From the sequence record OQ349392.1: 64,000 nt of DNA; one strand, 5' to 3'. Position numbers and translations under genes: made by a program. The DNA is from Escherichia phage KIT06. The notes under the pieces are model-generated. The model searched no databases. It worked only from the letters and a program-made list of their open reading frames with translations, and was not told the DNA's origin. This document shows positions 375 through 17,440 of the stretch, one piece after another. Position 1 is the first letter of the stretch. Every line of letters starts with the position of its first letter.

Positions 375-1962
<1,588 letters not shown>

Positions 1963-1965
1963 GCT

Positions 1966-2019
1966 GTTTACAAGTCCCTCGTGTTGTGTTACAGTAGTCT
2001 TACTGACATAACATGAGGA
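1966..2019 (+). repeat. 54-bp perfect direct repeat, copy 1 (rnlA-alc intergenic); GTTTAC...CATGAGGA cassette
   Basis: gtttacaagtccctcgtgttgtgttacagtagtcttactgacataacatgagga, identical to 17061-17114; flanks differ on both sides. Confidence 0.85.
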
Positions 2020-2026
2020 CTTTATG

Positions 2027-2530
2027 ATGGATTTACAGCTTATTACTACTGAAATGGTCGTTGAAGCATACGGTGATACTACAGATGGGATTTCTGTATT
2101 TAAAGGAAATCGTCGAGTTGGATATATCACCGATCTTAAGAAAGATTTAGCTAAGCAAGTCAAGCGGAAAACGACTATTAAAGAATATCGAAATCGTCGC
2201 CTTGAGCAAGCCCGTGATATGCTTCCTGATGCGGTTGAGGAGATGAAAGTCTTTTTAGAAAATCAGCTTGCGAAATATGATTGTGATGTGTTCATTAATC
2301 AGACTCAACCTAATGTTCATATTAATAGCTGTAAATGCTACATCATCGTTAATCCTTTGACGGGAAAACATCGTCTTGGAATTAGTAATCCAAATCGTAG
2401 TGCATCAGATATGGCAGAAGATGTTGAGGCATGCTTTAAAATTTCTAAATCTCCGGCTGAACATCATATTTTAATTAACGGTCTTTCTCAAGACGATATT
2501 GTAGAGGTTATTAAAACTTTATGCATGTAA
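2027..2530 (+). CDS. alc: Alc (host transcription shutoff protein), 167 aa
   Basis: ORF 2024..2530 starts ATGATG; second ATG gives MDLQLITTEMVV as remembered for T4 Alc; lies directly downstream of rnlA as in T4. Confidence 0.8.
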   Translation: MDLQLITTEMVVEAYGDTTDGISVFKGNRRVGYITDLKKDLAKQVKRKTTIKEYRNRRLEQARDMLPDAVEEMKVFLENQLAKYDCDVFINQTQPNVHINSCKCYIIVNPLTGKHRLGISNPNRSASDMAEDVEACFKISKSPAEHHILINGLSQDDIVEVIKTLCM

Positions 2531-2874
2531 GTAATTTTACAGCTGGATTGCTATTACTTGTAATAGCATTTGGTGGAACATCTATTATTTTAAAAAATAA
2601 GGTAGAAAGATTAGAAACATCGGTTACTGAAATTACAAAAACGGCCAATGAAAACGCTTTAGCATTAGATAATTTGCGAATTCAGTATAATTATATTGAT
2701 GCGATGAATAATAAAAATCGTGAGGCAATTGCTGCTATTGAGCGTGAAAATGAAAAACTGCGCAAAGATGCAAAGAAGGCGGATGTGGTGGCTCATAAGC
2801 CAGGATTGGTTGAAAAACAAATCAACAACTCCTTCAACAAGTTCGCAGAAGACATCCAGGACCTTTCTAAATGA
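2521..2874 (+). CDS. Hypothetical membrane protein (pseT.3 position), 117 aa
   Basis: ORF track; ATG start overlapping alc stop; N-terminal hydrophobic helix FTAGLLLLVIAFGGTSIIL. Confidence 0.6.
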   Translation: MHVSNFTAGLLLLVIAFGGTSIILKNKVERLETSVTEITKTANENALALDNLRIQYNYIDAMNNKNREAIAAIERENEKLRKDAKKADVVAHKPGLVEKQINNSFNKFAEDIQDLSK

Positions 2875-3170
2875 TTAAACTATCGGCAGTAATATTATCT
2901 ATTGGTCTTCTAGTTGGTTGTTCGACAAAGCCTCTAGAAGTAAAGAAAGAAACAGTTCATCCTAATTGGCCTGTGCAAATAAAGTCATATGATGAAGCTA
3001 AACTATCTTGGCAAGTTAAAGTTATTGATGGTAAAGCTTGGGTCGGTATGCCATTTGAAGATTCCCAGGAATTTCGTATTTGGCTTAATGATGTAAAACG
3101 ATATGTACATGACCAAAAAACTATGATATGTTATTATCGTCAAGAGCTAAAAGAGGATAAATGTAAATGA
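2871..3170 (+). CDS. Hypothetical lipoprotein-like protein (pseT.2 position), 99 aa
   Basis: ORF track; signal peptide with lipobox-like LLVGCS; ATGA overlap with upstream stop. Confidence 0.6.
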   Translation: MIKLSAVILSIGLLVGCSTKPLEVKKETVHPNWPVQIKSYDEAKLSWQVKVIDGKAWVGMPFEDSQEFRIWLNDVKRYVHDQKTMICYYRQELKEDKCK

Positions 3171-3343
3171 TTTCATGGCATCAATTTGAACATCTCAAAG
3201 GATTGATTTATGAATCCGAGATGGCTGCAATGATTTATGGACGCCAGATTCAACGATTAGAATCTTTGCCTCCAACTAATGATGTTTTATTAGCTCAATC
3301 ACGCGCTAATCTTAAAAATGAATACCAAAATAAGTGGGGGTAA
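3167..3343 (+). CDS. Small hypothetical protein, 58 aa (below ORF-track cutoff)
   Basis: ATG at 3167 overlaps the TGA stop of the upstream ORF (ATGA coupling); open to TAA at 3341-3343; fills an otherwise empty gap in a tightly packed early operon. Confidence 0.4.
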   Translation: MISWHQFEHLKGLIYESEMAAMIYGRQIQRLESLPPTNDVLLAQSRANLKNEYQNKWG

Positions 3344-3394
3344 AGCATCTAAAGACCTGCATGATTATATTCAATCATTGGTTGAGAAAAATAA

Positions 3395-4602
<1,208 letters not shown>

Positions 4603-4666
4603 TGGCTTGGCACCATGAAACTTTGTCTATTATTGATTGGCTTGAAGAAAATTATGTGAGGTAAAT

Positions 4667-4942
4667 ATGTTTCCGACTTACTCTAAAATCGTAGAAGTAG
4701 TGTTTAGTCAAATTATCGCTAATAACATGTTTGAAAAGCTTGATAATGCAGCTGAGCTTCGAATCCACGCTCAAGTGACTCATGTATTGAACGCTTTGCT
4801 TCCAGACCAAGTGGATTCTATTGCAATTACGCTGTATCCAGGTTCCGCGCATATCATTGTCGTATTTGGTCTTGATGCTGAGCTAGTCATCAAAGGCGAT
4901 ATTCGTTTTGAATCGCAGACATCAGAATTCAAAGCAATTTAA
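4667..4942 (+). CDS. Hypothetical protein, 91 aa
   Basis: ORF track; position in pseT-cd interval. Confidence 0.55.
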   Translation: MFPTYSKIVEVVFSQIIANNMFEKLDNAAELRIHAQVTHVLNALLPDQVDSIAITLYPGSAHIIVVFGLDAELVIKGDIRFESQTSEFKAI

Positions 4943-4944
4943 TA

Positions 4945-4975
4945 GTTTACTTTACGGTAGAGTTGTGATATTATA
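4945..4975 (+). promoter_or_regulatory. Early-type promoter candidate (GTTTAC -35, about 18 bp spacer, TATTAT -10) with embedded 7-bp stem-loop
   Basis: gtttac...ggtagag-ttgtgatattatag-ctctacc; upstream of ORF 5004. Confidence 0.45.
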
Positions 4976-5003
4976 GCTCTACCAAACAAATGAGGAAATT
5001 GAA

Positions 5004-5240
5004 ATGCTAAGTGAAAAACCAATTACTGTTAAAGAATTCCAAGAAAAAGTTAAACTATTTGCTCAGGAATTGGTAAATAAAGTTTCTGAACGATTTCCTG
5101 AAACATCGGTTCGTGTTATTACCGAAACTCCTCGTTCAGTATTAGTAATTGTGAATCCAGGTGATGGTGACCAAATAACACATCTCAAATTGGATTTTGA
5201 TGGATTAGTTGAAGCACAAAGGGTGTATGGCGTACTATGA
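5004..5240 (+). CDS. Hypothetical protein, 78 aa
   Basis: ORF track; ATG preceded by GAGGAA SD and an early-promoter-like element. Confidence 0.6.
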   Translation: MLSEKPITVKEFQEKVKLFAQELVNKVSERFPETSVRVITETPRSVLVIVNPGDGDQITHLKLDFDGLVEAQRVYGVL

Positions 5241-5575
5241 TGAATTTAACTGATATAATTGATAATTGTCTTGAAAATGATACTGGCGATCATAGAGCGC
5301 TTGACTCTGAAACAGCACAGTTCATTAGAATAACTTTAATGAATGATACTCTAGTGAATAGTATTCATCCTTCTGTGTATGATGCTATTATTGTGACGAA
5401 GTATCCAGTTGAGCTTCACAAAAAGATGGCTGGTGCAATTTTTATTGATAAGAAAAACCGCTTTAAAGATGGGCAGAATATAATTAGTTCTGTTATTAAA
5501 AGTATAACTAAACTTCGTCACGAAATTTATCGTGTTGAAACCGCTAAATCTGCTTATCTGGTGATTATGAAATGA
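5237..5575 (+). CDS. Hypothetical protein, 112 aa
   Basis: ORF track; start overlaps upstream stop (translational coupling). Confidence 0.6.
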   Translation: MMNLTDIIDNCLENDTGDHRALDSETAQFIRITLMNDTLVNSIHPSVYDAIIVTKYPVELHKKMAGAIFIDKKNRFKDGQNIISSVIKSITKLRHEIYRVETAKSAYLVIMK

Positions 5576-6153
5576 AAGCGAGTACAGTACTTCAAATTGC
5601 ATATTTAGTATCACAAGAATCCAAATGTTGCTCCTGGAAGGTAGGAGCAGTAATTGAAAAGAATGGACGTATTATTTCTACTGGATATAACGGTTCTCCG
5701 GCAGGTGGTGTGAATTGCTGTGATTATGCTGCCGAGCAAGGTTGGTTGTTGAATAAACCTAAACATACTATCATTCAAGGTCATAAGCCCGAATGTGTAT
5801 CATTTAGTTCAACTGAACGTTTTGTCTTAGCGAAAGAACACCGTAGTGCTCACTCTGAATGGTCGTCTAAAAATGAAATTCACGCTGAACTAAATGCAAT
5901 TTTGTTTGCTGCACGAAATGGTTCTTCAATTGAAGGCGCTACTATGTATGTAACACTTTCTCCTTGCCCAGATTGTGCAAAAGCAATAGCTCAATCTGGA
6001 ATTAAAAAGTTGGTTTATTGTGAAACGTACGATAAAAATAAACCTGGCTGGGATGATATTCTGCGAAATGCGGGTATTGAAGTGTTTAATGTTCCTAAGA
6101 AAAACTTGAATAAGTTAAACTGGGAAAATATCAACGAATTCTGCGGTGAATAA
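5572..6153 (+). CDS. cd: dCMP deaminase, 193 aa
   Basis: Zinc-binding cytidine/dCMP deaminase motifs HAELNAI and PCPDCAKAI; length and position as in T4. Confidence 0.9.
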   Translation: MKASTVLQIAYLVSQESKCCSWKVGAVIEKNGRIISTGYNGSPAGGVNCCDYAAEQGWLLNKPKHTIIQGHKPECVSFSSTERFVLAKEHRSAHSEWSSKNEIHAELNAILFAARNGSSIEGATMYVTLSPCPDCAKAIAQSGIKKLVYCETYDKNKPGWDDILRNAGIEVFNVPKKNLNKLNWENINEFCGE

Positions 6154-6389
6154 TGAAATTTCGTTTGGTACAACTCACAGCAATTAGTTCTTATTCTAAT
6201 GAGAACATTTCATTTGCTGTAGAGTATAAGAAGCATTTTTTCTCTAAATGGAAGCAGTATTATAAGTCAAACTGGGTTTGTATTGATAATCCACATAGTT
6301 GGAAATCTGATTTAGAAAAATGCCAAAAATTGCTTTCCACTCTTAAAGAACGTGGAACAACTCATATTAAAACTGTGATAGGTAAATAA
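6153..6389 (+). CDS. Hypothetical protein (31.2 position), 78 aa
   Basis: ORF track; coupled to cd stop. Confidence 0.6.
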   Translation: MKFRLVQLTAISSYSNENISFAVEYKKHFFSKWKQYYKSNWVCIDNPHSWKSDLEKCQKLLSTLKERGTTHIKTVIGK

Positions 6390-6698
6390 ATGAAACTGAC
6401 GACTGAACAGAAAGTAGCAATTCGTGAAATTTTGAAAACTAAATTGTCCATGGGTATTTCAAACGTAGTTTTTGAAAAGTCTGATGGTACTATTCGTACT
6501 ATGAAAGGCACTCGTGATGCAGACTTTATGCCAACCATGCAAACCGGTAAATTGACTGAATCGACTCGGAAAGAATCTACTGATATGATTCCAGTATTTG
6601 ATGTTGAGCTTGGTGCATGGCGAGGTTTTTCTATTGACAAATTGATTTCCGTTAATGGTATGAAAGTTGAGCATTTGCTTCAATTTATTGGTAAATAA
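6390..6698 (+). CDS. Hypothetical protein (31.1 position), 102 aa
   Basis: ORF track. Confidence 0.6.
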   Translation: MKLTTEQKVAIREILKTKLSMGISNVVFEKSDGTIRTMKGTRDADFMPTMQTGKLTESTRKESTDMIPVFDVELGAWRGFSIDKLISVNGMKVEHLLQFIGK

Positions 6699-6725
6699 AT
6701 GCTTTAAGAATTATTTGTTATTATT
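6697..6725 (+). promoter_or_regulatory. Middle promoter candidate for gene 31: MotA box TGCTTTA plus TATTAT -10
   Basis: aaaTGCTTtA at 6697-6706, TATTAT at 6719-6724 (about 12 bp between). Confidence 0.5.
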
Positions 6726-6754
6726 AATTCATCTGTTAACAAAAAGGAAAAACG

Positions 6755-7090
6755 ATGTCTGAAGTACAACAGCTACCAATTCGTGCTGTCGGTGAATATG
6801 TTATTTTAGTTTCTGAACCTGCACAAGCCGGTGATGAAGAAGTCACAGAATCAGGACTCATTATCGGTAAACGTGTTCAAGGTGAAGTTCCTGAACTGTG
6901 TGTAGTTCACTCTGTTGGTCCTGATGTTCCTGAAGGTTTCTGCGAAGTTGGTGATTTGACTTCTCTTCCAGTTGGTCAAATTCGAAACGTTCCGCATCCT
7001 TTTGTAGCTCTGGGTCTTAAGCAGCCAAAAGAAATTAAACAAAAATTCGTTACCTGTCACTATAAAGCTATTCCGTGTCTTTATAAGTGA
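6755..7090 (+). CDS. 31: Co-chaperonin gp31 (GroES analogue for capsid protein folding), 111 aa
   Basis: Sequence [22 protein letters not shown]... matches remembered T4 gp31; preceded by a MotA-box middle promoter. Confidence 0.9.
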
Positions 7091-7098
7091 TATAAATA
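7091..7098 (+). promoter_or_regulatory. TATAAATA late-promoter motif between gene 31 and rIII
   Basis: Exact TATAAATA right after gene 31 stop; lies 140 nt upstream of the rIII ATG, so its function is uncertain. Confidence 0.3.
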
Positions 7099-7237
7099 AT
7101 AATATGAATTGGGTGTCGGAATAATAAGTTAACCGAACAATTCTATGTGGTAGTCTACAACTGAGAGATCTGTCGAAAGAAGATGAAATTCAGAAGAACG
7201 TGACTACCGAGTTTTAATCTCTAACGAGAATTTTTAA

Positions 7238-7486
7238 ATGATTAAACAATTACAACACGCTCTTGAACTGCAACGAAACGCATGGAATAATGGTCACGAA
7301 AACTATGGCGCATCTATTGATGTTGAAGCCGAAGCTCTTGAAATCCTGCGTTATTTCAAACATCTGAATCCTGCTCAAACTGCATTAGCTGCTGAGCTCC
7401 AGGAAAAAGATGAACTTAAGTATGCTAAGCCTCTGGCTTCTGCTGCACGAAAAGCAGTTCGTCACTTTGTGGTAACACTGAAGTAA
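7238..7486 (+). CDS. rIII: rIII lysis inhibition accessory protein, 82 aa
   Basis: 82-aa ORF MIKQLQHALELQRNAWNNGHENYG matches remembered T4 RIII; position after gene 31. Confidence 0.85.
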   Translation: MIKQLQHALELQRNAWNNGHENYGASIDVEAEALEILRYFKHLNPAQTALAAELQEKDELKYAKPLASAARKAVRHFVVTLK

Positions 7487-7883
7487 TTTATTGGAGATTC
7501 ACTGCCTTAGTGTGAGCTAAAATCGAGGAGCCGTCGAACTGTCTGATTAATGATTTGCGAATCATTATAGTTTTAAGACCCCGGCAGTTTTACGGTGTAC
7601 CTCTTGAATGTTATTCTTATAGCGGCAAGTGCATGCTACCCCGAGGTGATGGCTAATCGGGAGTACGCCTCAAGGCCTATATATCCATCAGTATATATCT
7701 TATCCTCGAGAAATCGAACCCGGAACCTTTAAGCTAACGGTGTGCAACAGATAAGAGCTATAAGGTATGATGACGGGTTTATGGTTATCCTGTCGGTAAA
7801 TATTCAAAACCTAAGTACCCCTTTGAGGGCTTTCGCAGGCAATGCCAATAAGTCCTGCATTTTCATTTAAAAGAGAATTTATA

Positions 7884-8060
7884 ATGGCAAAACAAGCTAA
7901 AGCAAAGAAAGCAGTTGAAAAGAAAGTTGGTGATTCTAAACGCGCTGGCTACAAGCGTGGGTCGAACTCTCGTATCAATCAAACTGTTGAGAAGATCATG
8001 CGCCGAGCACGTGCGGTTCTTCGAGATGATGCTTCTCGTTTTGGTAAGCAGAAAGCATAA
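7884..8060 (+). CDS. Small lysine/arginine-rich hypothetical protein, 58 aa (30.9 position)
   Basis: ORF track 7842..8060; ATG at 7884 (MAKQAKAKKAVEKK...) preferred; followed immediately by a strong hairpin-plus-T-run terminator. Confidence 0.5.
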   Translation: MAKQAKAKKAVEKKVGDSKRAGYKRGSNSRINQTVEKIMRRARAVLRDDASRFGKQKA

Positions 8061-8064
8061 GTTG

Positions 8065-8094
8065 AGGACTCCTTCGGGAGTCCTTTTTTATTTT
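8065..8094 (+). terminator. Intrinsic terminator: 8-bp stem AGGACTCC-TTCG-GGAGTCCT plus TTTTTTATTTT
   Basis: Perfect stem, UUCG tetraloop, long T-run immediately after the 58-aa ORF stop. Confidence 0.65.
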
Positions 8095-8113
8095 CCAAAG
8101 ATTGCACAAAGTT

Positions 8114-8143
8114 GTTTACAGTATAGTTCCTTTGTGATAGTAT
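8114..8143 (+). promoter_or_regulatory. Early-type promoter candidate (GTTTAC ... TAGTAT) within a CACAAAG/CTTTGTG stem-loop
   Basis: gtttac at 8114-8119, -10-like tagtat about 18 bp downstream; upstream of ORF 8171. Confidence 0.45.
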
Positions 8144-8170
8144 TATCTTACACAAACAAAGGAGAATAAA

Positions 8171-8503
8171 ATGAAAACGATTAATCTGAACGCTACAGTT
8201 AAAACTAAATGCTTCAATGGTAAATATGATGAAACTATGTGGTTCTTAATGGCAGTTGAAGGTGATATTATTGAAGTAGAAACAACAGAAGGTATGGGAA
8301 CAGATTTCACCTTTACAATTCAAGTTCATAATTTCTTTACTGGTTGGATTTATGAATTGAATACAGTAATCGTTGGAAAAATTGAACAAAATGAATTGGG
8401 TGAATGGTATTATGTTACAGCTCGCCAGCGTGCCGAACGCTTAATTGAGAAGATGAAAAAAGTTGGTAAACTTGACATGCAGCACTGGAAAGTAGTAAAA
8501 TAA
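8171..8503 (+). CDS. Hypothetical protein, 110 aa
   Basis: ORF track; GGAGAATAAAATG ribosome-binding context; early-promoter-like element upstream. Confidence 0.65.
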   Translation: MKTINLNATVKTKCFNGKYDETMWFLMAVEGDIIEVETTEGMGTDFTFTIQVHNFFTGWIYELNTVIVGKIEQNELGEWYYVTARQRAERLIEKMKKVGKLDMQHWKVVK

Positions 8504-8505
8504 TT

Positions 8506-8535
8506 GTTTACTTTGGTACAGGATATGATATTATA
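8506..8535 (+). promoter_or_regulatory. Early-type promoter candidate (GTTTAC ... TATTAT) with GGTACAGG/CCTGTACC stem-loop
   Basis: gtttac at 8506-8511, tattat about 17 bp downstream inside hairpin loop; upstream of ORF 8572. Confidence 0.45.
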
Positions 8536-8571
8536 TACCTGTACCGCAATTAAACATCTCGGAGAATAAAA

Positions 8572-8937
8572 ATGAACTACATCAACTTTGAACGTAAATA
8601 TGTTTCTAATGGTATTGCAGGTTCTATTGATACTATCTGCCTTTGGAAACATCAAAATGGATCAGTATGCGAAATTGAACAGTATATGACTCCTAACTAC
8701 GTTTATATGCGATTTGAAAATGGCATCACGGTTTCAATCACGAAAGAAGGTTCTTCTTTTAAAATCGCATTAGATGATGATTTCCGTCAACGTGATTTAG
8801 GTACCCATCCTTGCTGGAACGGCGTTAATCGTAAGCTTCTGGTTAAAACTTGGATTCGTCATATTCTGAGTAACAGAGCTAAACCTGAGCATCTTGAAGC
8901 GATCTTTGATGTAGTTCTTAACGAATTTGATATTTAA
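8572..8937 (+). CDS. Hypothetical protein, 121 aa
   Basis: ORF track; same GGAGAATAAAAATG context as previous gene. Confidence 0.65.
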   Translation: MNYINFERKYVSNGIAGSIDTICLWKHQNGSVCEIEQYMTPNYVYMRFENGITVSITKEGSSFKIALDDDFRQRDLGTHPCWNGVNRKLLVKTWIRHILSNRAKPEHLEAIFDVVLNEFDI

Positions 8938-8977
8938 AATAAAACAGGGGCTTCGGCCCCTTACTGAGGAAAATACT

Positions 8978-9265
8978 ATGTTTATGACTACTTATTTTGA
9001 TACCCGTAAAAACTTCTGTGAAGTAGTTTTCTCTAAGGCGCCTAAAGACCTTCCTGCTCATTTGCAACCTACCAGTGAATCAATTAAAAACTACGTTAAT
9101 GTAGTCTGCCCTTTAGAGTTTCGTACTGTAAATGGGCGTGATACTCTAGCTATCACTAAACTTAATCGTGAAATTGACATTGACCCTTCAATTGCGCGTG
9201 AAATTAACATTTCTGATATTGGCGGCGGTAATGTTAAATCGCATGGTTTTCAGATGAGGTTCTAA
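8978..9265 (+). CDS. Hypothetical protein, 95 aa
   Basis: ORF track 8927..9265 starts at TTG inside a hairpin; trimmed to ATG at 8978 preceded by GAGGA. Confidence 0.6.
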   Translation: MFMTTYFDTRKNFCEVVFSKAPKDLPAHLQPTSESIKNYVNVVCPLEFRTVNGRDTLAITKLNREIDIDPSIAREINISDIGGGNVKSHGFQMRF

Positions 9266-9462
9266 TGAAATTCTTTTTAGGTCAAACTGTTGAATTAAAG
9301 GGAGTTGGTATACCTGGATTAATTTCTAAGGTTCTATCTCCATTTAAATGGAGTGGTATTCAAATAAAAGAGGCTTATATTGTTTCCTGGGTAGATGGAA
9401 ATGAAGACCTTCGTATGGGCGATGAATTATCTCCTATCTATGGATTAAAGGAATTAGTATGA
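9265..9462 (+). CDS. Hypothetical protein, 65 aa
   Basis: ORF track; TAATG overlap with upstream gene. Confidence 0.55.
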   Translation: MKFFLGQTVELKGVGIPGLISKVLSPFKWSGIQIKEAYIVSWVDGNEDLRMGDELSPIYGLKELV

Positions 9463-9665
9463 ATATAATTAATAAGATTTTTGGAATTCAGTACATTAAG
9501 GTCACATATAAAGTAACGTATAAAGGTCCGTATACCGATGAACATGAAGAGCCGCAAGTTAAGTCTATTATATTAGAAAAGGACCCTAACTGGCCAATTG
9601 AATTTCGTCTTCCTTGCTATGGTCATTGGGCTGATGTTGAAATTATAAGTATTGAAAATGTCTGA
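9459..9665 (+). CDS. Hypothetical protein, 68 aa
   Basis: ORF track; ATGA overlap with upstream gene. Confidence 0.55.
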   Translation: MNIINKIFGIQYIKVTYKVTYKGPYTDEHEEPQVKSIILEKDPNWPIEFRLPCYGHWADVEIISIENV

Positions 9666-10116
9666 GTTAGAGATTAGAAGCAATTTTAGATGGCCATCAT
9701 GTGCATTAAGTAATTTCGCCCAATGGCCTTTTGTTATGGATGGTATCCAATTTGGAGGTCTCGAAGGATTCCTCCAAGGATGCAAGGTGAAAAATGTTGA
9801 ACAACAGCGTCGTATATTTGGGTTATCCGGGCTTGCCGCCCAACAAGCTGGAAGGTCTTATGCAAGAGCTCAGGACCATGGCACGTTGTTCTGGCTTGGA
9901 ACTCCGTTTTCAAGATATTCCGAAGCATGGAAAGAATTATACACAAATGCATATTTTGAAGCCGCGATCCAAAACAAGGGGTTTCGTGATGCCTTACAAG
10001 CCTCTAAAGGAAAAATTTTGAAGCACAGCATGGCTAGCGGTCTAACAAAAGATGATACAATACTAACCGAAGCTGAATTTATTGATGTGTTAAACCTATT
10101 AAGAGACTCTCTATGA
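9658..10116 (+). CDS. NADAR/YbiA-like (DUF1768-type) protein, 152 aa (30.3 position)
   Basis: ORF track 9652..10116 starts at TTG; ATG at 9658. Segment ALSNFAQWPFVMDGIQFGGLEGFLQGCK resembles the remembered YbiA/NADAR core (SNFxxWP...DG...F...E..FQ..K). Family assignment is from memory of the motif only. Confidence 0.6.
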   Translation: MSELEIRSNFRWPSCALSNFAQWPFVMDGIQFGGLEGFLQGCKVKNVEQQRRIFGLSGLAAQQAGRSYARAQDHGTLFWLGTPFSRYSEAWKELYTNAYFEAAIQNKGFRDALQASKGKILKHSMASGLTKDDTILTEAEFIDVLNLLRDSL

Positions 10117-10943
10117 AGCCAACTATTTTGACTGATATTGATGGAGTATGTTTAAGCTGGCAATCAGGCCTTCCTTATTTTGCTCAGAAATATAATCTTC
10201 CGTTAGAACATATTTTAAAAATGATCCAAGATGAGAAATTTATTTCTCCAGGTAAACTCTTTAATTGTGACGAAGAACTTGGCGTCAAGTTAATTGAAAA
10301 ATACAATCGTTCAGATTTTATTCGTTACTTGTCTCCGTATAAAGATGCCCTGTGTGTAATTAACAAATTAAAAGAAGATTATAATTTTGTAGCTGTTACA
10401 GCATTGGGTGATTCTATTGACGCTCTGTTGAATCGTCAATTTAATTTGAATGCTCTTTTTCCTGGTGCTTTCTCGGAAGTAATGATGTGTGGTCATGATT
10501 CTTCAAAAGAAGAGCTGTTCAAAAAGGCAAAAGAGAAATATAACGTAATTTGTTATATTGACGATCTCGCTCATCACTGCGATCATGCGAGTGAAATATT
10601 AAATGTTCCTGTTTATTGGATGGCTCGAGGGGAGCGTGATAATATTCCAAAAACTGCTCAGCGAGTTTATACATGGAATGATGTAGAAAATAAGCTTTTT
10701 TCGCCGAAGGAAAATAAAGAAAGTTTTGATAGTGAAAAAGCTATAAAAGATTTAATTGAGAAGATGGTTAAAAACGATTCTTTTCCTTGGAACACTACCT
10801 GGAGAACGCCTGGATTAAATCCTTATAATCATCCATATCAGACACATCCGTTTCAGACATGGAACTATATTAAACCTGGTGGCATAGAGTATTTGTATAA
10901 TAGACCTACTAGTGGTGATAATATTTTTCAAGGAGCATTCTAA
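10113..10943 (+). CDS. HAD-superfamily-like hydrolase, possible nucleotidase, 276 aa (30.2 position)
   Basis: N-terminal ILTDIDGV (HAD motif I DxDGx), later VAVTA and YIDDLAHH consistent with HAD motifs II and IV. Confidence 0.65.
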   Translation: MKPTILTDIDGVCLSWQSGLPYFAQKYNLPLEHILKMIQDEKFISPGKLFNCDEELGVKLIEKYNRSDFIRYLSPYKDALCVINKLKEDYNFVAVTALGDSIDALLNRQFNLNALFPGAFSEVMMCGHDSSKEELFKKAKEKYNVICYIDDLAHHCDHASEILNVPVYWMARGERDNIPKTAQRVYTWNDVENKLFSPKENKESFDSEKAIKDLIEKMVKNDSFPWNTTWRTPGLNPYNHPYQTHPFQTWNYIKPGGIEYLYNRPTSGDNIFQGAF

Positions 10944-11209
10944 TGTTTGTTGTTCATACTATTTATGAAAATGAAGGTAATACTACACGTGATTACGGTC
11001 ACGTAAATCAATTTTTTAGATGCAATCCAGAATTCCGTGCTCAAAAAGACGAACGAATTTTTAAAAAATGTGTAGAACAAGGTTTCATTTACGTCAAGCA
11101 CTGGATGCAAGGAAATAAAGTTAGAACTACATATCATAAGTCTTTGCCTGAGCTTAATGATGAATTGATTTATAATAGAGCTGTAAACCAAACCTTGAAG
11201 GATGAATAA
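10943..11209 (+). CDS. Hypothetical protein, 88 aa (30.1 position)
   Basis: ORF track; AAGGAG SD; stop overlaps ligase start. Confidence 0.6.
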   Translation: MFVVHTIYENEGNTTRDYGHVNQFFRCNPEFRAQKDERIFKKCVEQGFIYVKHWMQGNKVRTTYHKSLPELNDELIYNRAVNQTLKDE

Positions 11210-12669
11210 TGATTCTTAAAATTCTGAATGAAATAGCATCTATTGGTTCAACTAAGCAGAAGCAAGCAATTCTTGAAAAGAATAAAGATAATGAATTGCT
11301 TAAACGAGTATATCGTCTGACTTATTCTCGTGGGTTACAGTATTATATCAAGAAATGGCCTAAACCTGGTATTGCTACCCAGAGTTTTGGAATGCTGACT
11401 ATTACCGATATGCTTGACTTCATTGAATTCACGTTAGCTACTCGGAAATTAACTGGCAATGCAGCAATTGAGGAATTAACTGGATATATCACCGATGGTA
11501 AAAAGGATGATGTTGAAGTTTTGCGTCGAGTTATGATGCGAGACCTTGAATGCGGTGCTTCAGTATCTATTGCAAACAAAGTTTGGCCAGGTTTAATTCC
11601 TGAACAACCTCAAATGCTGGCAAGTTCTTATGATGAAAAAGGCATTAGTAAGAATATCAAGTTTCCAGCTTTTGCGCAGTTAAAAGCAGATGGAGCTCGG
11701 TGTTTTGCTGAAGTCCGAGGTGATGAATTAGATGATGTTCGTCTTTTATCACGAGCTGGCAATGAATACCTAGGATTAGATCTTCTTAAGGAAGAGTTAA
11801 TCAAAATGACTGCTGAAGCCCGCCAGATTCATCCAGAAGGTGTGTTAATTGATGGCGAATTGGTATACCATGAGCAAGTTGAAAAGGAACCAGAAGGCCT
11901 AGATTTTCTTTTTGATGCTCCTGAAATCAGTAAAGCTAAAGAATTCGCCGAAGTAGCTGAATCACGTACTGCTTCTAATGGAATCGCCAATAAATCTTTA
12001 AAGGGAACTATTTCAGAAAAAGAAGCCAAATGTATGAAGTTTCAGGTCTGGGATTATGTTCCGTTGGTAGAAATATACGGTCTTCCGGCGTTTCGTTTAA
12101 AATATGATGTACGTTTTTCTAAACTAGAACAAATGACATCAGGATATGATAAAGTAATTTTAATTGAAAACCAAGTAGTAAATAACCTAGATGAAGCTAA
12201 GGTAATTTATAAAAAATATATTGACCAAGGTCTTGAAGGTATTATTCTCAAAAATACCGATGGATTGTGGGAAAATGCTCGTTCAAAAAATCTCTATAAA
12301 TTTAAAGAAGTAATTGATGTTGATTTAAAAATTGTAGGAATTTATCCTCACCGTAAAGACCCTACTAAAGCAGGTGGATTTATTCTTGAGTCAGAGTGTG
12401 GAAAAATTAAAGTAAATGCTGGTTCAGGCTTAAAAGATAAAGCCGGTGTAAAATCACATGAACTTGACCGTACTCGCATTATGGAAAACCAAAATTATTA
12501 TATTGGAAAAATTCTAGAGTGCGAATGCAACGGTTGGCTAAAATCTGATGGCCGCACTGATTACGTAAAATTATTTCTTCCAATTGCGATTCGTTTGCGT
12601 GAAGATAAAACAAAAGCTAATACATTCGAGGATGTATTTGGTGATTTTCATGAGGTAACTGGTCTATGA
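11209..12669 (+). CDS. 30: ATP-dependent DNA ligase, 486 aa
   Basis: Adenylation motif KADGAR; MILKILNEIASIGSTKQKQAILEKNKDNELL matches remembered T4 gp30. Confidence 0.95.
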   Translation: MILKILNEIASIGSTKQKQAILEKNKDNELLKRVYRLTYSRGLQYYIKKWPKPGIATQSFGMLTITDMLDFIEFTLATRKLTGNAAIEELTGYITDGKKDDVEVLRRVMMRDLECGASVSIANKVWPGLIPEQPQMLASSYDEKGISKNIKFPAFAQLKADGARCFAEVRGDELDDVRLLSRAGNEYLGLDLLKEELIKMTAEARQIHPEGVLIDGELVYHEQVEKEPEGLDFLFDAPEISKAKEFAEVAESRTASNGIANKSLKGTISEKEAKCMKFQVWDYVPLVEIYGLPAFRLKYDVRFSKLEQMTSGYDKVILIENQVVNNLDEAKVIYKKYIDQGLEGIILKNTDGLWENARSKNLYKFKEVIDVDLKIVGIYPHRKDPTKAGGFILESECGKIKVNAGSGLKDKAGVKSHELDRTRIMENQNYYIGKILECECNGWLKSDGRTDYVKLFLPIAIRLREDKTKANTFEDVFGDFHEVTGL

Positions 12670-12854
12670 AAGCTTACTTAGAAACAATTGTCATTGCTCA
12701 AAAAGAAGGTGGAGATGTTTCTACTTCTGTATCACAAGTCATTCTCGAATTTGTAGATGCATATGCTTATAATAAATTTACAGAAACATTTGATGCCTAC
12801 GAAAAAGGTCCAAAGTTTGAAATATATCGTACTCTCTTACCATTAGATTATTAA
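12666..12854 (+). CDS. Hypothetical protein, 62 aa
   Basis: ORF track; coupled to ligase stop; followed by hairpin terminator. Confidence 0.55.
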   Translation: MKAYLETIVIAQKEGGDVSTSVSQVILEFVDAYAYNKFTETFDAYEKGPKFEIYRTLLPLDY

Positions 12855-12855
12855 A

Positions 12856-12871
12856 GGCCTTCGGGCCTTTA
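12856..12871 (+). terminator. Hairpin AAGGCC-TTCG-GGCCTT after the gene 30 operon
   Basis: 6-bp stem, UUCG loop, followed by TTTAATTTTA. Confidence 0.5.
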
Positions 12872-12875
12872 ATTT

Positions 12876-12883
12876 TATAAATA
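12876..12883 (+). promoter_or_regulatory. Late promoter TATAAATA for alt
   Basis: Exact TATAAATA about 20 nt upstream of the alt ATG; Alt is a late, head-packaged protein in T4. Confidence 0.6.
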
Positions 12884-12903
12884 GAATAAACACTAGAGAG
12901 GAT

Positions 12904-15000
12904 ATGATGGAACTCATTACAGAATTATTTGACGAAGATACTACTCTTCCGATTACAAACTTAAATCCAAAGAAGAAAATACCGCAAATTTTTTCAGTTC
13001 ATGTTGATGACGCAATTGAACAACCAGGCTTTCGTTTATGTACCTATACATCTGGAGGTGATACTAACCGTGATCTAAAGATGGGCGATAAAATGATGCA
13101 CATTGTTCCTTTTACATTAACTGCTAAAGGTTCAATTGCTAAATTGAAAGGTCTCGGTCCAAGCCCAATTAATTACATCAATTCAGTTTTTACTGTTGCG
13201 ATGCAAACGATGCGTCAGTATAAAATTGATGCCTGCATGCTTCGTATTCTTAAGTCTAAAACTGCCGGTCAAGCTCGACAAATTCAAGTTATTGCTGATA
13301 GACTTATCCGTAGTCGTTCGGGTGGCAGATACGTCCTTCTTAAGGAACTCTGGGATTACGATAAAAAGTACGCATATATTCTTATACATCGCAAAAATGT
13401 ATCACTAGAAGACATTCCAGGAGTTCCGGAAATTAGTACCGAGCTCTTTACTAAAGTTGAATCGAAAGTCGGCGATGTTTATATCAATAAAGATACTGGA
13501 GCTCAAGTAACTAAAAATGAGGCAATTGCTGCATCTATTGCGCAAGAAAATGATAAGCGTTCTGACCAAGCTGTAATCGTTAAAGTTAAAATTTCCCGTA
13601 GAGCAATTGCGCAAAGTCAGTCATTGGAATCTTCTAGATTTGAAAGCGAATTATTCCAGAAATATGAATCTACCGCAGCTAATTTCAATAAACCCGCTAC
13701 AGCTCCTTTAATTCCCGAAGCAGAAGAAATGAAGCTTGGAATTAATTCATTAGCTTCTAAAACTAAGGCAGCAAAAATTATTGCTGAAGGAACTGCAGAT
13801 GAACTTCACTATGACTATAAATTCTTTTCAAAAAGTGAGGTTAATGAAGTTTCTGAAAAAATTAAAGACGTAATTCTTAATGCGATTAAAAATGAACCAA
13901 CTACTTCAATAAAATGTTTAGAGAAGTATGCAGCAGCTATTAATAAATTCTTTGAAGAATATAAAGATACTTGGCTTGATAAACATAATAAAACCCGTAA
14001 AGGACAGCCAGATGAAGTCTGGGAAGAAATAACTAAAAATTCCTGGAACGCAGCAAAAACTAAATTCCTCAAACGAATGATTTATAGCTTTTCTGGAATT
14101 GGTGCAGGTCCAATGATTGATATTACTATTGCCCGTGATGGTTCTAAATATACTCCATCACAAAAGCGCGGCATTAGAGAATATTGTGGTTCAGGATATA
14201 CTGACATCAATAATCTTCTTTTAGGACGCTACAATCCAGAACGATATGATGTAATGAGTGAAAAAGAAATTGAATCTGCGATAAATAATTTAGATTCAGC
14301 CTTTGAAAATGGTGACCGTATACCAGAAGGCATTACAGTTTATCGTGCTCAAAGTATGACTGCTCCTATATACGAAGCGCTAGTTAAAAATAAAGTGTTC
14401 TATTTCAGAAATTTTGTATCTACTTCTTTAACTCCTATCATTTTTGGACGTTTTGGAATTACACATGCTGGTATCGGTCTTTTAGAACCAGAAGCTCGTA
14501 ATGAATTAACAGTTGATAAAAATGAAGAAGGAATAACTATTAATCCGAACGAAATAAGAGCGTATAAAGAAAATCCTGAATACGTTAAAGTTCAAATAGG
14601 ATGGGCAATTGATGGAGCTCATAAAGTTAATGTTGTATATCCAGGGAGTCTCGGAATAGCAACAGAAGCTGAAGTAATTCTACCACGCGGATTGATGGTC
14701 AAAGTTAATAAAATAACTGATGCTTCTAATAATGACGGAACAACATCTAATAACACAAAACTCATTCAAGCTGAAGTTATGACTACGGAAGAACTCACCG
14801 AATCAGTAATTTATGACGGTGACCGTCTAATGGAAACTGGTGAAGTAGTTGCAATGACAGATGATATTGAAATAGAAGACAGAGTTGACTTTGCATCATT
14901 TGTTTCATCAAATGTTAAACAGAAAGCAGAATCATCTCTCGGAATTATTGCGTCTTGCATAGATATTACAAACATGCCTTACAAGTTCGTTCAAGGATAA
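12904..15000 (+). CDS. alt: Alt-family mono-ADP-ribosyltransferase (head-packaged), 698 aa
   Basis: N-terminus MELITELFD (LxE-type prohead-protease site); R-S-E ADP-ribosyltransferase triad context (YRAQS, FVSTSLTP, ATEAEVILPRG); late promoter TATAAATA about 25 bp upstream. May start at the second ATG (12907). Confidence 0.85.
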   Translation: MMELITELFDEDTTLPITNLNPKKKIPQIFSVHVDDAIEQPGFRLCTYTSGGDTNRDLKMGDKMMHIVPFTLTAKGSIAKLKGLGPSPINYINSVFTVAMQTMRQYKIDACMLRILKSKTAGQARQIQVIADRLIRSRSGGRYVLLKELWDYDKKYAYILIHRKNVSLEDIPGVPEISTELFTKVESKVGDVYINKDTGAQVTKNEAIAASIAQENDKRSDQAVIVKVKISRRAIAQSQSLESSRFESELFQKYESTAANFNKPATAPLIPEAEEMKLGINSLASKTKAAKIIAEGTADELHYDYKFFSKSEVNEVSEKIKDVILNAIKNEPTTSIKCLEKYAAAINKFFEEYKDTWLDKHNKTRKGQPDEVWEEITKNSWNAAKTKFLKRMIYSFSGIGAGPMIDITIARDGSKYTPSQKRGIREYCGSGYTDINNLLLGRYNPERYDVMSEKEIESAINNLDSAFENGDRIPEGITVYRAQSMTAPIYEALVKNKVFYFRNFVSTSLTPIIFGRFGITHAGIGLLEPEARNELTVDKNEEGITINPNEIRAYKENPEYVKVQIGWAIDGAHKVNVVYPGSLGIATEAEVILPRGLMVKVNKITDASNNDGTTSNNTKLIQAEVMTTEELTESVIYDGDRLMETGEVVAMTDDIEIEDRVDFASFVSSNVKQKAESSLGIIASCIDITNMPYKFVQG

Positions 15001-15003
15001 ATC

Positions 15004-17061
15004 ATGGAACTTATTACAGAATTATTTGACGGCGCTTCGGCGCCGGTTGTTAACTTAAATCCTAAGCATAAAATACCTCAAATTTTTGCTATTCAAGCCG
15101 GCGAAGAAAGTGTGCTTCCTGGATTTAGATTTTGTACATACACCTCTGGCGGTGATACAAATAAAAACGTTAAGCCAGGCGATAAAATGATGCATATCGT
15201 AATGATAGGTGTTAATGAGAAACTATCATTAGTTAAACTTAAAAACTTGGGTGGAAATCCAATTGGTGTCATTAATGCAGTTTTTGATACTGCTCTTCAA
15301 ACAATGAAACAGTATAAAATTGACGCATGCTTATTCCGCGTACTAAAGAGTAAAACAAATGGCGCTGCTCGTCAAATGCAAGTTATTGCCGACCGTTTAG
15401 TACGTACTAAAGGAGCAGGTCGATATGTTCTTTTAAAGGAAATCTGGGACTATGATAAGAAATATGCATATATTATGGTTTACCGTAAAAATGCCAATTT
15501 AGAAGACATTCCAGGTGTACCTCCTATTTCAACTGAGTTATTCACAAAAGTTGAATCAAAGGTTGGTGATGTTTATGTAGATGTTAAAACAGGTAATGCT
15601 GTTCCTAAAGCTGTTGCTGTTGCTGCTTCTATTGCTTTAGAAAATGATAAGCGTACGGATCAAGCTGTTATTCAGAAAACTAAAATTAGCCGTCGATTAG
15701 CAGCTCAGGCTCAATATTCTACTGTCGATGCTTCACTTCAGGGTGATAGCTTCGCTGCTAAGAAATATCAAGAGTTTGAATCTAAAGTTCCGGTATATAA
15801 AGCAGAAGGACCAATGAACTCTGGCGTTATTCAGGTTGGTTCAAACTTCAGTAAAGGAGCTATCGGTGGTATGAGAAGTGCTTCTCGTTTTAAATCTAGT
15901 GATTATGAACTAGAAAGCTTCAGAAATCATATTGCATTGGCTCATGCACGTTTACGTGATCCATCTATCAAGTTACAGAGCGATATAACATATCAAGGTT
16001 CTCAGGAATATTTAAAGAATAAAGAATTTTTTGATTATAAAACTGATAAAATTTTAAGCGATCTCGCTGACATTAATATTTCTAATAGCTTTGATGTTAT
16101 TAAGAAAATTATCAATGATTTAGTTAAAGGTTCTAAAGCCACGCCAGATGAAAAGGTAGCTATTGTTCAATTTGTCATGAATGGCATTTATAAATTGATT
16201 AATGAGTCTGCTTCTCAAGCGTATGAATATGCAAGTACTGAAGTACCCCCAAAAGGATTAACTCGGGCTGAGTCTGATGTAATTGAAGATTATTGCGCAG
16301 ATTCATATGTTGAAATGAACTCGTTCCTTTTAGGTAAACCAGATTCTACTCGTGAAGAATACATGGAACGAGCTATTAAACACATCGAGACAATGGATTC
16401 TGCCTTTGCCAAAGGATCAGTTCTTCCTCCAGGAACTACGCTTTATCGTGGACAAGAAGTTACTTTTAAAACTTTACGCCATAATATTGAAAATAAAATG
16501 TTCTATTTCAAGAACTTCGTATCAACATCGCTTAAACCAAATATCTTCGGTGAGTATGGTAAAAACTATATGGCCCTAGATGATTCTGGTGCAGTATTTT
16601 CTGGTGAAGGAGAAGGTTCAGTTGATGCTGAAGATTTAATGCATATGGGCAGTCACTCTGCTTACGCGAATGAAGATGCTGAAACTAGCGTGGGTATGGT
16701 AATTAAAGGGGCTGAGCGAATCAAAGTTATCGTTCCAGGTCATTTATCAGGATTTCCATCAGAAGCTGAAGTTATTCTACCGCGCGGAATTTTACTGAAG
16801 ATTAATAAAGTAAGTACGTACTTTATGAAAGAAACTGCTTATAACAAGTATCTAATAGAAGGTACAATCGTTCCTCCTTCTGAACAATTAGAGGAATCGG
16901 TATATGATGGCGAGCATCTAATGGAAACTGGCGAAGTTCGTCCAATGGCTGGATTTAATCAATTCCTTGTAGAAGAATCAAAAGAAGAGGAAAACGAAGT
17001 TTCTCAAATCTTGGCTTCTTTGGTTAACATCAACGGAATGTCTAAAAAGTTCAAAATGTAG
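15004..17061 (+). CDS. Second Alt-family ADP-ribosyltransferase paralog, 685 aa
   Basis: Same N-terminal MELITELFD, conserved first ~230 aa, diverged middle, conserved ART motifs (YRGQE, FVSTSLKP, PSEAEVILPRG) and C-terminal ESVYDGEHLMETGEV; starts 3 nt after the first alt stop. Confidence 0.85.
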   Translation: MELITELFDGASAPVVNLNPKHKIPQIFAIQAGEESVLPGFRFCTYTSGGDTNKNVKPGDKMMHIVMIGVNEKLSLVKLKNLGGNPIGVINAVFDTALQTMKQYKIDACLFRVLKSKTNGAARQMQVIADRLVRTKGAGRYVLLKEIWDYDKKYAYIMVYRKNANLEDIPGVPPISTELFTKVESKVGDVYVDVKTGNAVPKAVAVAASIALENDKRTDQAVIQKTKISRRLAAQAQYSTVDASLQGDSFAAKKYQEFESKVPVYKAEGPMNSGVIQVGSNFSKGAIGGMRSASRFKSSDYELESFRNHIALAHARLRDPSIKLQSDITYQGSQEYLKNKEFFDYKTDKILSDLADINISNSFDVIKKIINDLVKGSKATPDEKVAIVQFVMNGIYKLINESASQAYEYASTEVPPKGLTRAESDVIEDYCADSYVEMNSFLLGKPDSTREEYMERAIKHIETMDSAFAKGSVLPPGTTLYRGQEVTFKTLRHNIENKMFYFKNFVSTSLKPNIFGEYGKNYMALDDSGAVFSGEGEGSVDAEDLMHMGSHSAYANEDAETSVGMVIKGAERIKVIVPGHLSGFPSEAEVILPRGILLKINKVSTYFMKETAYNKYLIEGTIVPPSEQLEESVYDGEHLMETGEVRPMAGFNQFLVEESKEEENEVSQILASLVNINGMSKKFKM

Positions 17062-17114
17062 TTTACAAGTCCCTCGTGTTGTGTTACAGTAGTCTTACTG
17101 ACATAACATGAGGA
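17061..17114 (+). repeat. 54-bp perfect direct repeat, copy 2 (after alt paralog, before 96-aa ORF)
   Basis: Identical to 1966-2019; first base is the last base of the upstream TAG stop; ends in GAGGA 7 nt before the ATG at 17122. Confidence 0.85.
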
Positions 17115-17121
17115 ACACAAA

Positions 17122-17412
17122 ATGAAATCTTCTTTACGCTTTTTAGGTCAAGAACTTGTAGTTGAAGGCGTTATTCCTGCTGATAATGCTTTTAATGAAG
17201 CAGTTTACGATGAATTTATTAAAATTTTTGGAACAGATAAAAAGTTCGGAATTTTTCCTTCTGAAAATTTTTCAAAGCCAGAACAGACTGAAAGCATTTT
17301 CCAAGGTGTAGTAACAGGCAAATTTGAGTCAGAAGCTCCGGTAAAAATTGAAGTTTATATTGAAGACAGTTTAGTTGCTTCAGTTGCTGCTTTTATTTCA
17401 TTCCGTAAATAA
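17122..17412 (+). CDS. Hypothetical protein, 96 aa
   Basis: ORF track; preceded by the 54-bp repeat cassette providing GAGGA SD. Confidence 0.6.
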   Translation: MKSSLRFLGQELVVEGVIPADNAFNEAVYDEFIKIFGTDKKFGIFPSENFSKPEQTESIFQGVVTGKFESEAPVKIEVYIEDSLVASVAAFISFRK

Positions 17413-17418
17413 AAACAT

Positions 17419-17436
17419 GGGGACCGAAAGGTCCCC
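17419..17436. terminator. Bidirectional hairpin GGGGACC-GAAA-GGTCCCC between convergent 96-aa ORF and gene 54
   Basis: 7-bp GC stem with GAAA tetraloop between two convergent stops. Confidence 0.55.
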
Positions 17437-17440
17437 GTTG

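Follow-up and report, generated by a model that had tools for sequence, protein, structure and literature searches.

Twin 54-bp sequences before alc and alt.-3 in Escherichia phage KIT06: a repeated early-promoter cassette with a predicted Shine-Dalgarno-masking hairpin

Two identical 54-bp sequences that lie in the same orientation on both sides of a 15-kb block of early genes raise the question of what their likeness means: do they delimit a piece of DNA that recombination can exchange, delete or duplicate, or are they two copies of a control element with a function of its own? The pair was found in a stretch of 64,000 nucleotides from Escherichia phage KIT06 (OQ349392.1), hereafter called the window, which belongs to Tequatrovirus, the genus of T4, and is matched by about 500 T4-genus records at 95-99%. 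The best explanation of the whole, to which we give a probability of roughly 0.6, is that each copy is a gated early-gene cassette, that the cassette type of alc was copied to alt.-3, and that the pair does not serve to delimit a module. This reading is carried by the anatomy and conservation of the element, by covariation between the arms of its hairpin, by the distribution of cassette types over the two loci and by the absence of recombinant genomes among the deposited records.

Anatomy and conservation of the repeated element

The sequence GTTTACAAGTCCCTCGTGTTGTGTTACAGTAGTCTTACTGACATAACATGAGGA occurs twice on the plus strand, the copies being 54/54 identical and 15,095 bp apart, which confirms the two direct repeats around an early-gene block announced in a preliminary description of this DNA. 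A third copy with no more than 3 mismatches was not found in the 64-kb window, and none of 100 dinucleotide shuffles gave a match to the 54-bp repeat, so that chance is not the explanation. Flanks of the two copies are unrelated and the identity ends abruptly at the first and last base. Copy A begins 3 nt past the rnlA stop codon, while the stop codon of a second alt paralog ends on the first base of copy B. Open reading frames (ORFs) of the block were matched to the annotation of T4, T2 and RB51 as alc, pseT.3-pseT, cd.x, cd, 31.2, 31.1, 31, rIII, 30.9-30.1, 30, alt.1, alt and the full-length second alt paralog; their sizes fit, and the content listed previously is thus correct. The main features are as follows.

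1966-2019, plus strand: copy A of the cassette, 54 bp from promoter to Shine-Dalgarno sequence, located after the rnlA stop and before the start of alc
17061-17114, plus strand: copy B of the 54-bp cassette, preceding alt.-3
2020-17060, plus strand: bracketed 15-kb early-gene block, from alc to the second alt paralog
1966-1971 (copy A) and 17061-17066 (copy B), plus strand: -35 hexamer GTTTAC, the T4 early-promoter signature
1987-1995 (copy A) and 17082-17090 (copy B), plus strand: TGn extended -10 with -10 hexamer TACAGT
2002 (copy A) and 17097 (copy B), plus strand: predicted transcription start +1, an A, at element position 37 of 54
2015-2019 (copy A, for alc) and 17110-17114 (copy B, for alt.-3), plus strand: Shine-Dalgarno GAGGA, read from the sequence

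Each copy thus spans exactly the distance from the -35 element of a T4 early promoter through TGn and the -10 hexamer to the Shine-Dalgarno (SD) sequence, and GAGGA, the same in every Tequatrovirus copy, stops 7 nt short of the ATG codons of alc (2027, as annotated in T4) and alt.-3 (17122). The promoter has the layout TTTACA / 17 nt / TACAGT with TG, and its -10 hexamer keeps A at -11 and T at -7. Since GTTTAC at -36 to -31 is the signature of early promoters in T4 (PMC1524935), the start points were predicted at 2002 and 17097. The published description of T4 early (sigma70-dependent, Pe) promoters (PMC1524935, PMC2988021) matches the element in the signature, the spacer of 17 (±1) bp, TGn, the -10 hexamer and the correct orientation directly 5' of alc or alt.-3. 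Compared with canonical early promoters (UP / -35 GTTTAC / TGn / -10), which it resembles in these respects, the element differs in its -10 hexamer TACAGT, a weaker match than TATAGT or TATAAT of most relatives, and in that the whole stretch from promoter to SD is common to two genes. The latter is unusual: no second pair sharing an entire promoter-to-SD stretch between two genes was found in the window. Further GTTTAC promoters of the same general layout are located on the plus strand at 4945, 8114, 8506 and 32009. Literature searches with sequence strings of the element returned nothing relevant, no genome-wide map of T4 start sites was found, and a search of the RB69 promoter supplement by coordinate also found nothing. 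Cleavage by RegB was considered for this SD and dropped, because in Tequatrovirus it reads GAGGA, without GGAG.

BLAST with the 54-mer registered 997 places in 499 phage records, a set with some redundancy among database records (RefSeq/GenBank duplicates), and found two places per genome in essentially every Tequatrovirus, T4 and T2 included. In T4 (NC_000866) the copy before alc occupies 136283-136336 with 1 mismatch and the copy before alt.-3 occupies 123040-123093 with 2 mismatches. The repeat pair is, therefore, a fixed feature of the genus and not a peculiarity of the KIT06 genome. Variation was compared in a small sample of 15 Tequatrovirus genomes with both copies (30 copies): the two copies are identical in 4 of the genomes and differ at 1-6 positions in the remainder. 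Invariant in all 30 copies are the -35 element GTTTAC, positions 17-26 and the 14 nt at the 3' end, while positions 9-16, 27, 29, 32 and 33 vary freely among genomes.

A predicted hairpin across the promoter and the Shine-Dalgarno sequence

What the element may do besides promoting transcription is suggested by its folding. Positions 12-31 can pair with positions 36-53, forming 18 pairs including 2 G·U, and the predicted start at position 37 falls 3' of the entire 5' arm. The hairpin and the genes from which read-through transcription would reach it are located as follows.

1977-2018, plus strand: hairpin of copy A, with the 5' arm at 1977-1996 (spacer and -10) and the 3' arm at 2001-2018 (leader and GAGG)
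17072-17113, plus strand: hairpin of copy B
802-1962, plus strand: rnlA (gene 63), directly upstream of copy A and source of read-through RNA
2027-2530, plus strand: alc, inhibitor of host transcription, with an additional in-frame ATG at 2024
15004-17061, plus strand: second full-length alt paralog (alt.-2 homolog), directly upstream of copy B

The free energy of the fold is -11.4 kcal/mol for DNA (z = -4.1) and about -23 to -25 kcal/mol for RNA. In 130-nt read-through RNAs entering from rnlA or from the second alt paralog the hairpin is present both in the minimum free energy structure and in the centroid, with the SD (GAGG) predicted to be buried. RNAs beginning at the predicted +1 show no stronger folding than shuffled sequences (-3.2 and -3.6 kcal/mol), and their SD is predicted to be free. 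The terminator scan gave no terminator between either cassette and its upstream gene, and read-through RNA should therefore exist. A terminator function of the hairpin itself was rejected: it has no U-tract, being followed by CUUUAUGAUG in copy A and by ACACAAAAUG in copy B, and it is absent from the terminator scan.

A further view of this structure comes from other lineages. Cassettes upstream of alc were compared between Tequatrovirus and Dhakavirus IME341, Karamvirus CkP1, Karamvirus AS6, Marfavirus PhiKpNIH-6, Gelderlandvirus STP4-a, Klebsiella phages Lion_ER11 and HMGUkp2, and Winklervirus X20. In all eight lineages outside Tequatrovirus 10-12 nt following the -35 element are complementary to the SD region despite their differing sequence, as the following three cassettes illustrate.

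CkP1 alc cassette: 5' arm TCTCCGTTTTTG, 3' arm CAAAAACGGAGA
Lion_ER11 alc cassette: 5' arm ATCCTCATCAG, 3' arm CTGATGAGGAT
HMGUkp2 alc cassette: 5' arm CCTCGTTTGTT, 3' arm AACAAACGAGG

Because the MAFFT alignment of alc-type cassettes failed to bring the 3' arms of the genera into register, it was not used for covariation and we compared instead the duplexes of cognate and non-cognate arms in a permutation test. Over the nine alc-locus lineages cognate duplexes have a mean energy of -14.4 kcal/mol versus -7.9 (sd 2.8) for non-cognate ones, and none of 100,000 permutations reached the cognate mean. The 3' arm always contains the SD, whether it reads GAGGA, GGAGA or AAGGAA. Within Tequatrovirus most substitutions in the 5' arm (C13T, C15T, G16A and C27T) keep the pairing, and G40A of the T4 alt.-3 copy stands opposite T27, so that this pair is kept as well. 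Based on this covariation and folding we conclude that the hairpin is under selection and that it most likely acts in RNA by masking the ribosome-binding site.

The arrangement has known counterparts. In the T4 genes e, soc and 49 and in the I-TevI gene the SD is held in a helix of the read-through RNA, and a promoter located within the DNA of this structure produces a transcript of its own without the inhibitory arm (PMC3014915). The predicted geometry of the 54-bp element is the same, with the SD paired in read-through RNA and +1 placed 3' of the 5' arm. Those hairpins use late promoters and delay expression, whereas the promoter nested here is not of the late (gp55) type but of the early sigma70 type, predicted to fire immediately early; translation would therefore be restricted to the early window. 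Neither alc nor alt.-3 is on the list of promoter-in-hairpin cases given in that review, and the hairpin described here is known from prediction.

Thus, each 54-bp copy would be a self-contained cassette for early-gene expression, composed of a promoter for the host sigma70 polymerase, a 17-nt leader and GAGGA. Read-through RNA coming from rnlA or from the second alt paralog would hold both arms and form the 18-bp hairpin burying the SD, while RNA initiated at the own promoter of the cassette would lack the 5' arm and be translatable. Translation of alc, and in Tequatrovirus of alt.-3 too, would in this way depend on whether the immediate-early promoter of the gene itself fires.

Inverted repeats across the -10 region were also observed at other GTTTAC promoters of the window: GGTAGAG…CTCTACC at 4945, GGTACAGG…CCTGTACC at 8506, and CCTTTGTG…CAAAGG at 8114, where the repeat extends to the SD. 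T4 early promoters may in general possess a hairpin across -10.

Cassette types and probable exchange between the alc and alt.-3 loci

How the same cassette came to stand before two genes was approached by comparing both loci among genera. Since identity scores were not decisive, the classification of cassettes rests on structural features. Six phages that belong to five other genera (Dhakavirus, Marfavirus, two Karamvirus, Mosigvirus and Gaprivervirus) have a cassette of another type at alt.-3; its spacer contains a small internal hairpin (motif CAC(A)AGGA(N)GTG) and does not pair with the SD. The energy of the spacer:SD duplex splits the two types cleanly, being -9.9 to -18.5 kcal/mol in the alc type versus -0.6 to -5.4 kcal/mol in the alt.-3 type. 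Among the genera compared, only Tequatrovirus carries an alc-type cassette at the alt.-3 locus. Mosigvirus (AV112, RB69) presents the opposite picture: its alc locus bears an alt.-3-type cassette, which has genus-specific stretches (GTTTACAAACAC, TACTAT and TATCAACAACAYGAGGA) in common with the alt.-3 cassette of the same genus. The native spacer hairpin of alt.-3 in the six phages has a stem that itself covaries (CCAC/GTGG, GCAC/GTGC, ACACAT/ATGTGT) and an SD-like loop AAGGA(A/T).

The simplest reading of this distribution is two independent short ectopic conversions between the alc and alt.-3 loci, anchored on the GTTTACA and GAGGA ends that both cassette types share. We infer from the locus distribution that in Tequatrovirus the promoter of alt.-3 was overwritten by an alc-type cassette, and Mosigvirus appears to have done the reverse, bringing an alt.-3-type cassette to alc. 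The gated alc-type cassette would then be the ancestral alc promoter of T-even-like phages, and a copy of it would have replaced the native alt.-3 promoter in the ancestor of Tequatrovirus, producing the direct repeat.

Possible traces of exchange are seen within Tequatrovirus as well. Derived alleles A16, C27 and A32 and the haplotype A29+A32 are found at both loci in different genomes, and such alleles common to both loci are suggestive of occasional continuing conversion. In this respect, as in the genus-specific resemblance of paralogous copies (the Tequatrovirus pair and the Mosigvirus pair), the two loci resemble known cases of concerted evolution, or ectopic gene conversion, between short dispersed repeats. 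They differ from such cases in weak homogenization: copies within a genome differ at 2.27 positions versus 2.55 between genomes, which is not significantly smaller (p = 0.18 with 15 genomes and p = 0.16 with 11). It is tempting to go further and to regard promoter-to-SD cassettes as transplantable units, swapped at least twice and in opposite directions between two loci 15 kb apart, with low-level exchange perhaps continuing (A29+A32, A16 and C27 alleles); we hold this generalization tentatively, at somewhat less than even odds.

Two observations on the alc locus of other genera were made in the course of this comparison. In AV112 (Escherichia phage, OR352942; L019, 3587-3650) the annotated start of alc (ATGGTTTACAAACA…) is located inside the -35 element of the alc promoter, while the RB69 record places it about 60 nt further downstream, after the SD; the start codon in AV112 is probably mis-annotated. 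In Gaprivervirus VR20 (L018, 2940-3270) an extra alc-like ORF of 77 aa lies between rnlA and alc. Upstream of this ORF there is a GGGG…CCCC hairpin with a -35-like GTGTAC in the loop, followed by a T-rich run, and by its sequence this element is a putative composite of terminator and promoter, nearer to the published layout of the PeSL elements considered below.

Module boundaries, rival readings and the surroundings of the pair

The preliminary description proposed that recombination between the repeats makes them boundaries of modules exchanged between phages, or a source of deletion and duplication variants, and suggested a comparison of synteny breakpoints and a search for junctions. In the window the copies are indeed direct repeats with at least ~50 bp of uninterrupted homology (54/54), although in the larger sample homology is uninterrupted only in those 4 of the 15 genomes in which the copies are identical. 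A length of 54 bp lies at about the lower limit of homology required for recombination in T4 (Singer et al. 1982, cited by PMC2839356), in keeping with the statement that 54 bp are enough for recombination of the T4 type.

The consequences proposed for the pair were not observed. Four genera with annotation across the whole interval (Gaprivervirus, Mosigvirus, Dhakavirus and Marfavirus) were checked, and each of them retains the order rnlA-alc…alt-alt.-3-54; both of its end junctions are also present in two Karamvirus phages. Of 497 Tequatrovirus records, 494 keep colinearity across copy A. Near copy B coverage falls in about 95 records, probably due to truncation of the second alt paralog, which is the sole common indel in this place; in T4 it stops about 20 nt upstream of the element, not within it, sparing an A-rich stretch before the -35 hexamer. 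Two predicted junctions were then built, one for the deletion (end of rnlA, element, start of alt.-3) and one for the duplication or circle (end of the second alt paralog, element, start of alc). Neither is present in the 499 deposited records, none of which covers at least 80% of either junction. The deletion junction was also sought in metagenomes and not found, with little power, as this collection holds 8 element-bearing stretches only, all in normal context; the scan of IMG/VR gave 10 element-bearing stretches. Two genes of the block are relevant to the fate of recombinants.

6755-7090, inside the block: gene 31
11209-12669, inside the block: gene 30 (DNA ligase)

Genes 30 and 31 are essential in T4, and a duplication of 15 kb is larger than its terminal redundancy of about 3%. 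Because a reciprocal crossover would yield either a 15-kb deletion without both genes or a duplication beyond the headful margin, its products should not propagate, and we infer that they are inviable.

Taken as a whole, the reading of the repeats as recombination substrates that delimit an exchangeable 15-kb module and regularly give rise to deletion and duplication variants is, in our estimation, very improbable. It draws on the direct orientation, on a length close to the minimal T4 homology in PMC2839356, on the exchange of sequence between the two sites in evolution, and on alleles common to both loci; it has to face the conserved gene order, the indel that ends outside the element, the lack of either junction in the records, the essential genes inside the block and the headful limit, and the non-identity of copies in most genomes, which lowers the crossover frequency further. 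What can be retained is that exchange did involve the repeats: small-scale conversion of the cassette is supported by the distribution of types and by alleles found at both loci, while the role of the repeats as edges of an exchangeable module is not supported, nor is their role as a source of deletion variants. Least probable of the rival readings appears to be the one that identifies the element as a PeSL (Arbiol et al. 2010, Comeau et al. 2014), mediating ORF shuffling and formation of mini-circles. PMC2839356 and PMC4122927 describe PeSLs as composites of a terminator and an early promoter, with a stem-loop (the functional terminator) just upstream of -35, and as many dispersed copies in hyperplastic regions beside indels of ORFans, giving circles of 0.4-1.4 kb at ~1e-5 per virion. 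The likeness is real, as the element is a short conserved early-promoter cassette ending in an SD, fits the PST/T4 PeSL promoter consensus TTTACW-N17-TAYWAT and has a stem-loop, and transplantation of cassettes between alc and alt.-3 is in the spirit of PeSL shuffling. However, nothing folds upstream of the -35 hexamer of either copy and no terminator is located there, the sole hairpin covers the spacer, the -10 hexamer and the SD without a U-tract, and exactly two copies stand 15 kb apart beside conserved genes instead of many copies around single ORFans. On these grounds the element should not be filed as a PeSL.

Two further readings, both unlikely and to the same degree, though less so than the module and PeSL readings, concern the forces that maintain the element. 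Near-identity of the copies could be kept purely by selection for identical regulation, for instance through a binding site for a protein or RNA, with no copying and with an incidental hairpin. Such selection would account for the blocks that are invariant in the 30 copies and suits two genes that are both immediate-early, but convergence would not yield 54/54 identity at positions that vary freely (9-16, 27, 29, 32 and 33), alt.-3 of other genera is controlled by a structurally different cassette, and compensatory changes maintain the hairpin in nine lineages. The hairpin could also act as DNA, in the form of a cruciform or single-strand hairpin that makes a hotspot for recombination, replication or nucleases, and not in translation control by RNA. 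The significant DNA fold (z -4.1) speaks for this, and so does the antisense strand, whose fold equals or surpasses that of the sense strand in five lineages outside Tequatrovirus. The opposite is indicated by Tequatrovirus itself, where the sense strand folds better by 4-9 kcal/mol in 10/10 copies tested, owing to G·U pairs, and by the constant presence of the SD in the 3' arm, which is expected for masking of a ribosome-binding site and not for a DNA signal.

Several points weigh against the gated and copied cassette that we prefer. Both its promoter activity and the masking of the SD are predictions, the former with a start site deduced from the position of GTTTAC and the latter from folding. 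From covariation alone, hairpins of RNA and of DNA cannot be told apart, and outside Tequatrovirus sense and antisense folds are similar. Some Tequatrovirus variants (C12A, C13A, G29A and G40T) break pairs and weaken the stem. The element diverges between genomes by 3.6-5.4% versus 0.6-2% in the coding flanks, and plain identity leaves the Tequatrovirus cassette equidistant from the alc-locus (0.66) and alt.-3-locus (0.66) cassettes of other genera. Finally, a lack of recombinant junctions in finished genomes says nothing on low-frequency events in infected cells.

The surroundings of copy B add some details. Downstream of it the following features were registered.

17122-17412, plus strand: alt.-3, 96 aa, non-essential
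17417-17438, no strand assigned: bidirectional GC-rich terminator hairpin (GGGGACC gaaa GGTCCCC), terminating both the transcript of alt.-3 and late gene 54, which is convergent

The hairpin at 17417-17438 is a terminator in the DalCa annotation, too. Deletion of alt.-3 is viable, and C-terminal extensions of Alt.-3 let T4 escape the CmdTAC defence system (PMC11618068); an alc-type control cassette at alt.-3 of Tequatrovirus may bear on the timing of Alt.-3 expression. Paralogy of Alt.-3 with a 65-aa ORF at 9265-9462 was considered and rejected, as the DNA similarity gives only a weak protein match of 15 residues (E = 0.044). Upstream of copy B the window has two full-length alt (ADP-ribosyltransferase) paralogs in tandem, at 12904-15000 and 15004-17061, about 71% identical in DNA, the second of which is reduced in T4 to the remnants alt.-1 and alt.-2.

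Elsewhere in the window a perfect tandem duplication of 127 bp (53531-53657 = 53658-53784) was noticed within the minus-strand homolog of gene 7 (baseplate wedge initiator), which is thereby divided between the ORFs 52729-53808 and 53636-55954. The 501-nt stretch containing it maps to 374 nt in 498 relatives, which thus have a single copy, and a duplication that shifts the frame of an essential gene suggests either an artefact of assembly or a genome that is defective or altered. Among the database records, PV654520.1 ('Pseudomonas phage vB_PSGBLB0006', 142 kb) is 100% identical to the window around copy B and plainly a Tequatrovirus, is labelled with the host Pseudomonas aeruginosa and falls ~25 kb below full length; contamination or a wrong label may account for it.

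Thus, the repeat pair points neither to a mobile 15-kb module nor to an unstable genome. The alc leader, with a predicted SD-masking hairpin supported by covariation and an early promoter nested in it, would extend the principle known for e, soc, 49 and I-TevI to an immediate-early gene. Control of alt.-3 in Tequatrovirus would have been inherited by replacement of its cassette, a natural case of regulatory rewiring through a conversion tract of ~50 bp. For annotators it is of practical value that some records, such as that of AV112, start alc inside its promoter. If cassettes of this kind are indeed transplantable, T-even phages would rewire immediate-early expression by means of short ectopic gene conversion, leaving the genes themselves unmoved, and the repeated choice of the alc and alt.-3 pair would be a hint that selection favours joint expression of Alc and the uncharacterised Alt.-3.

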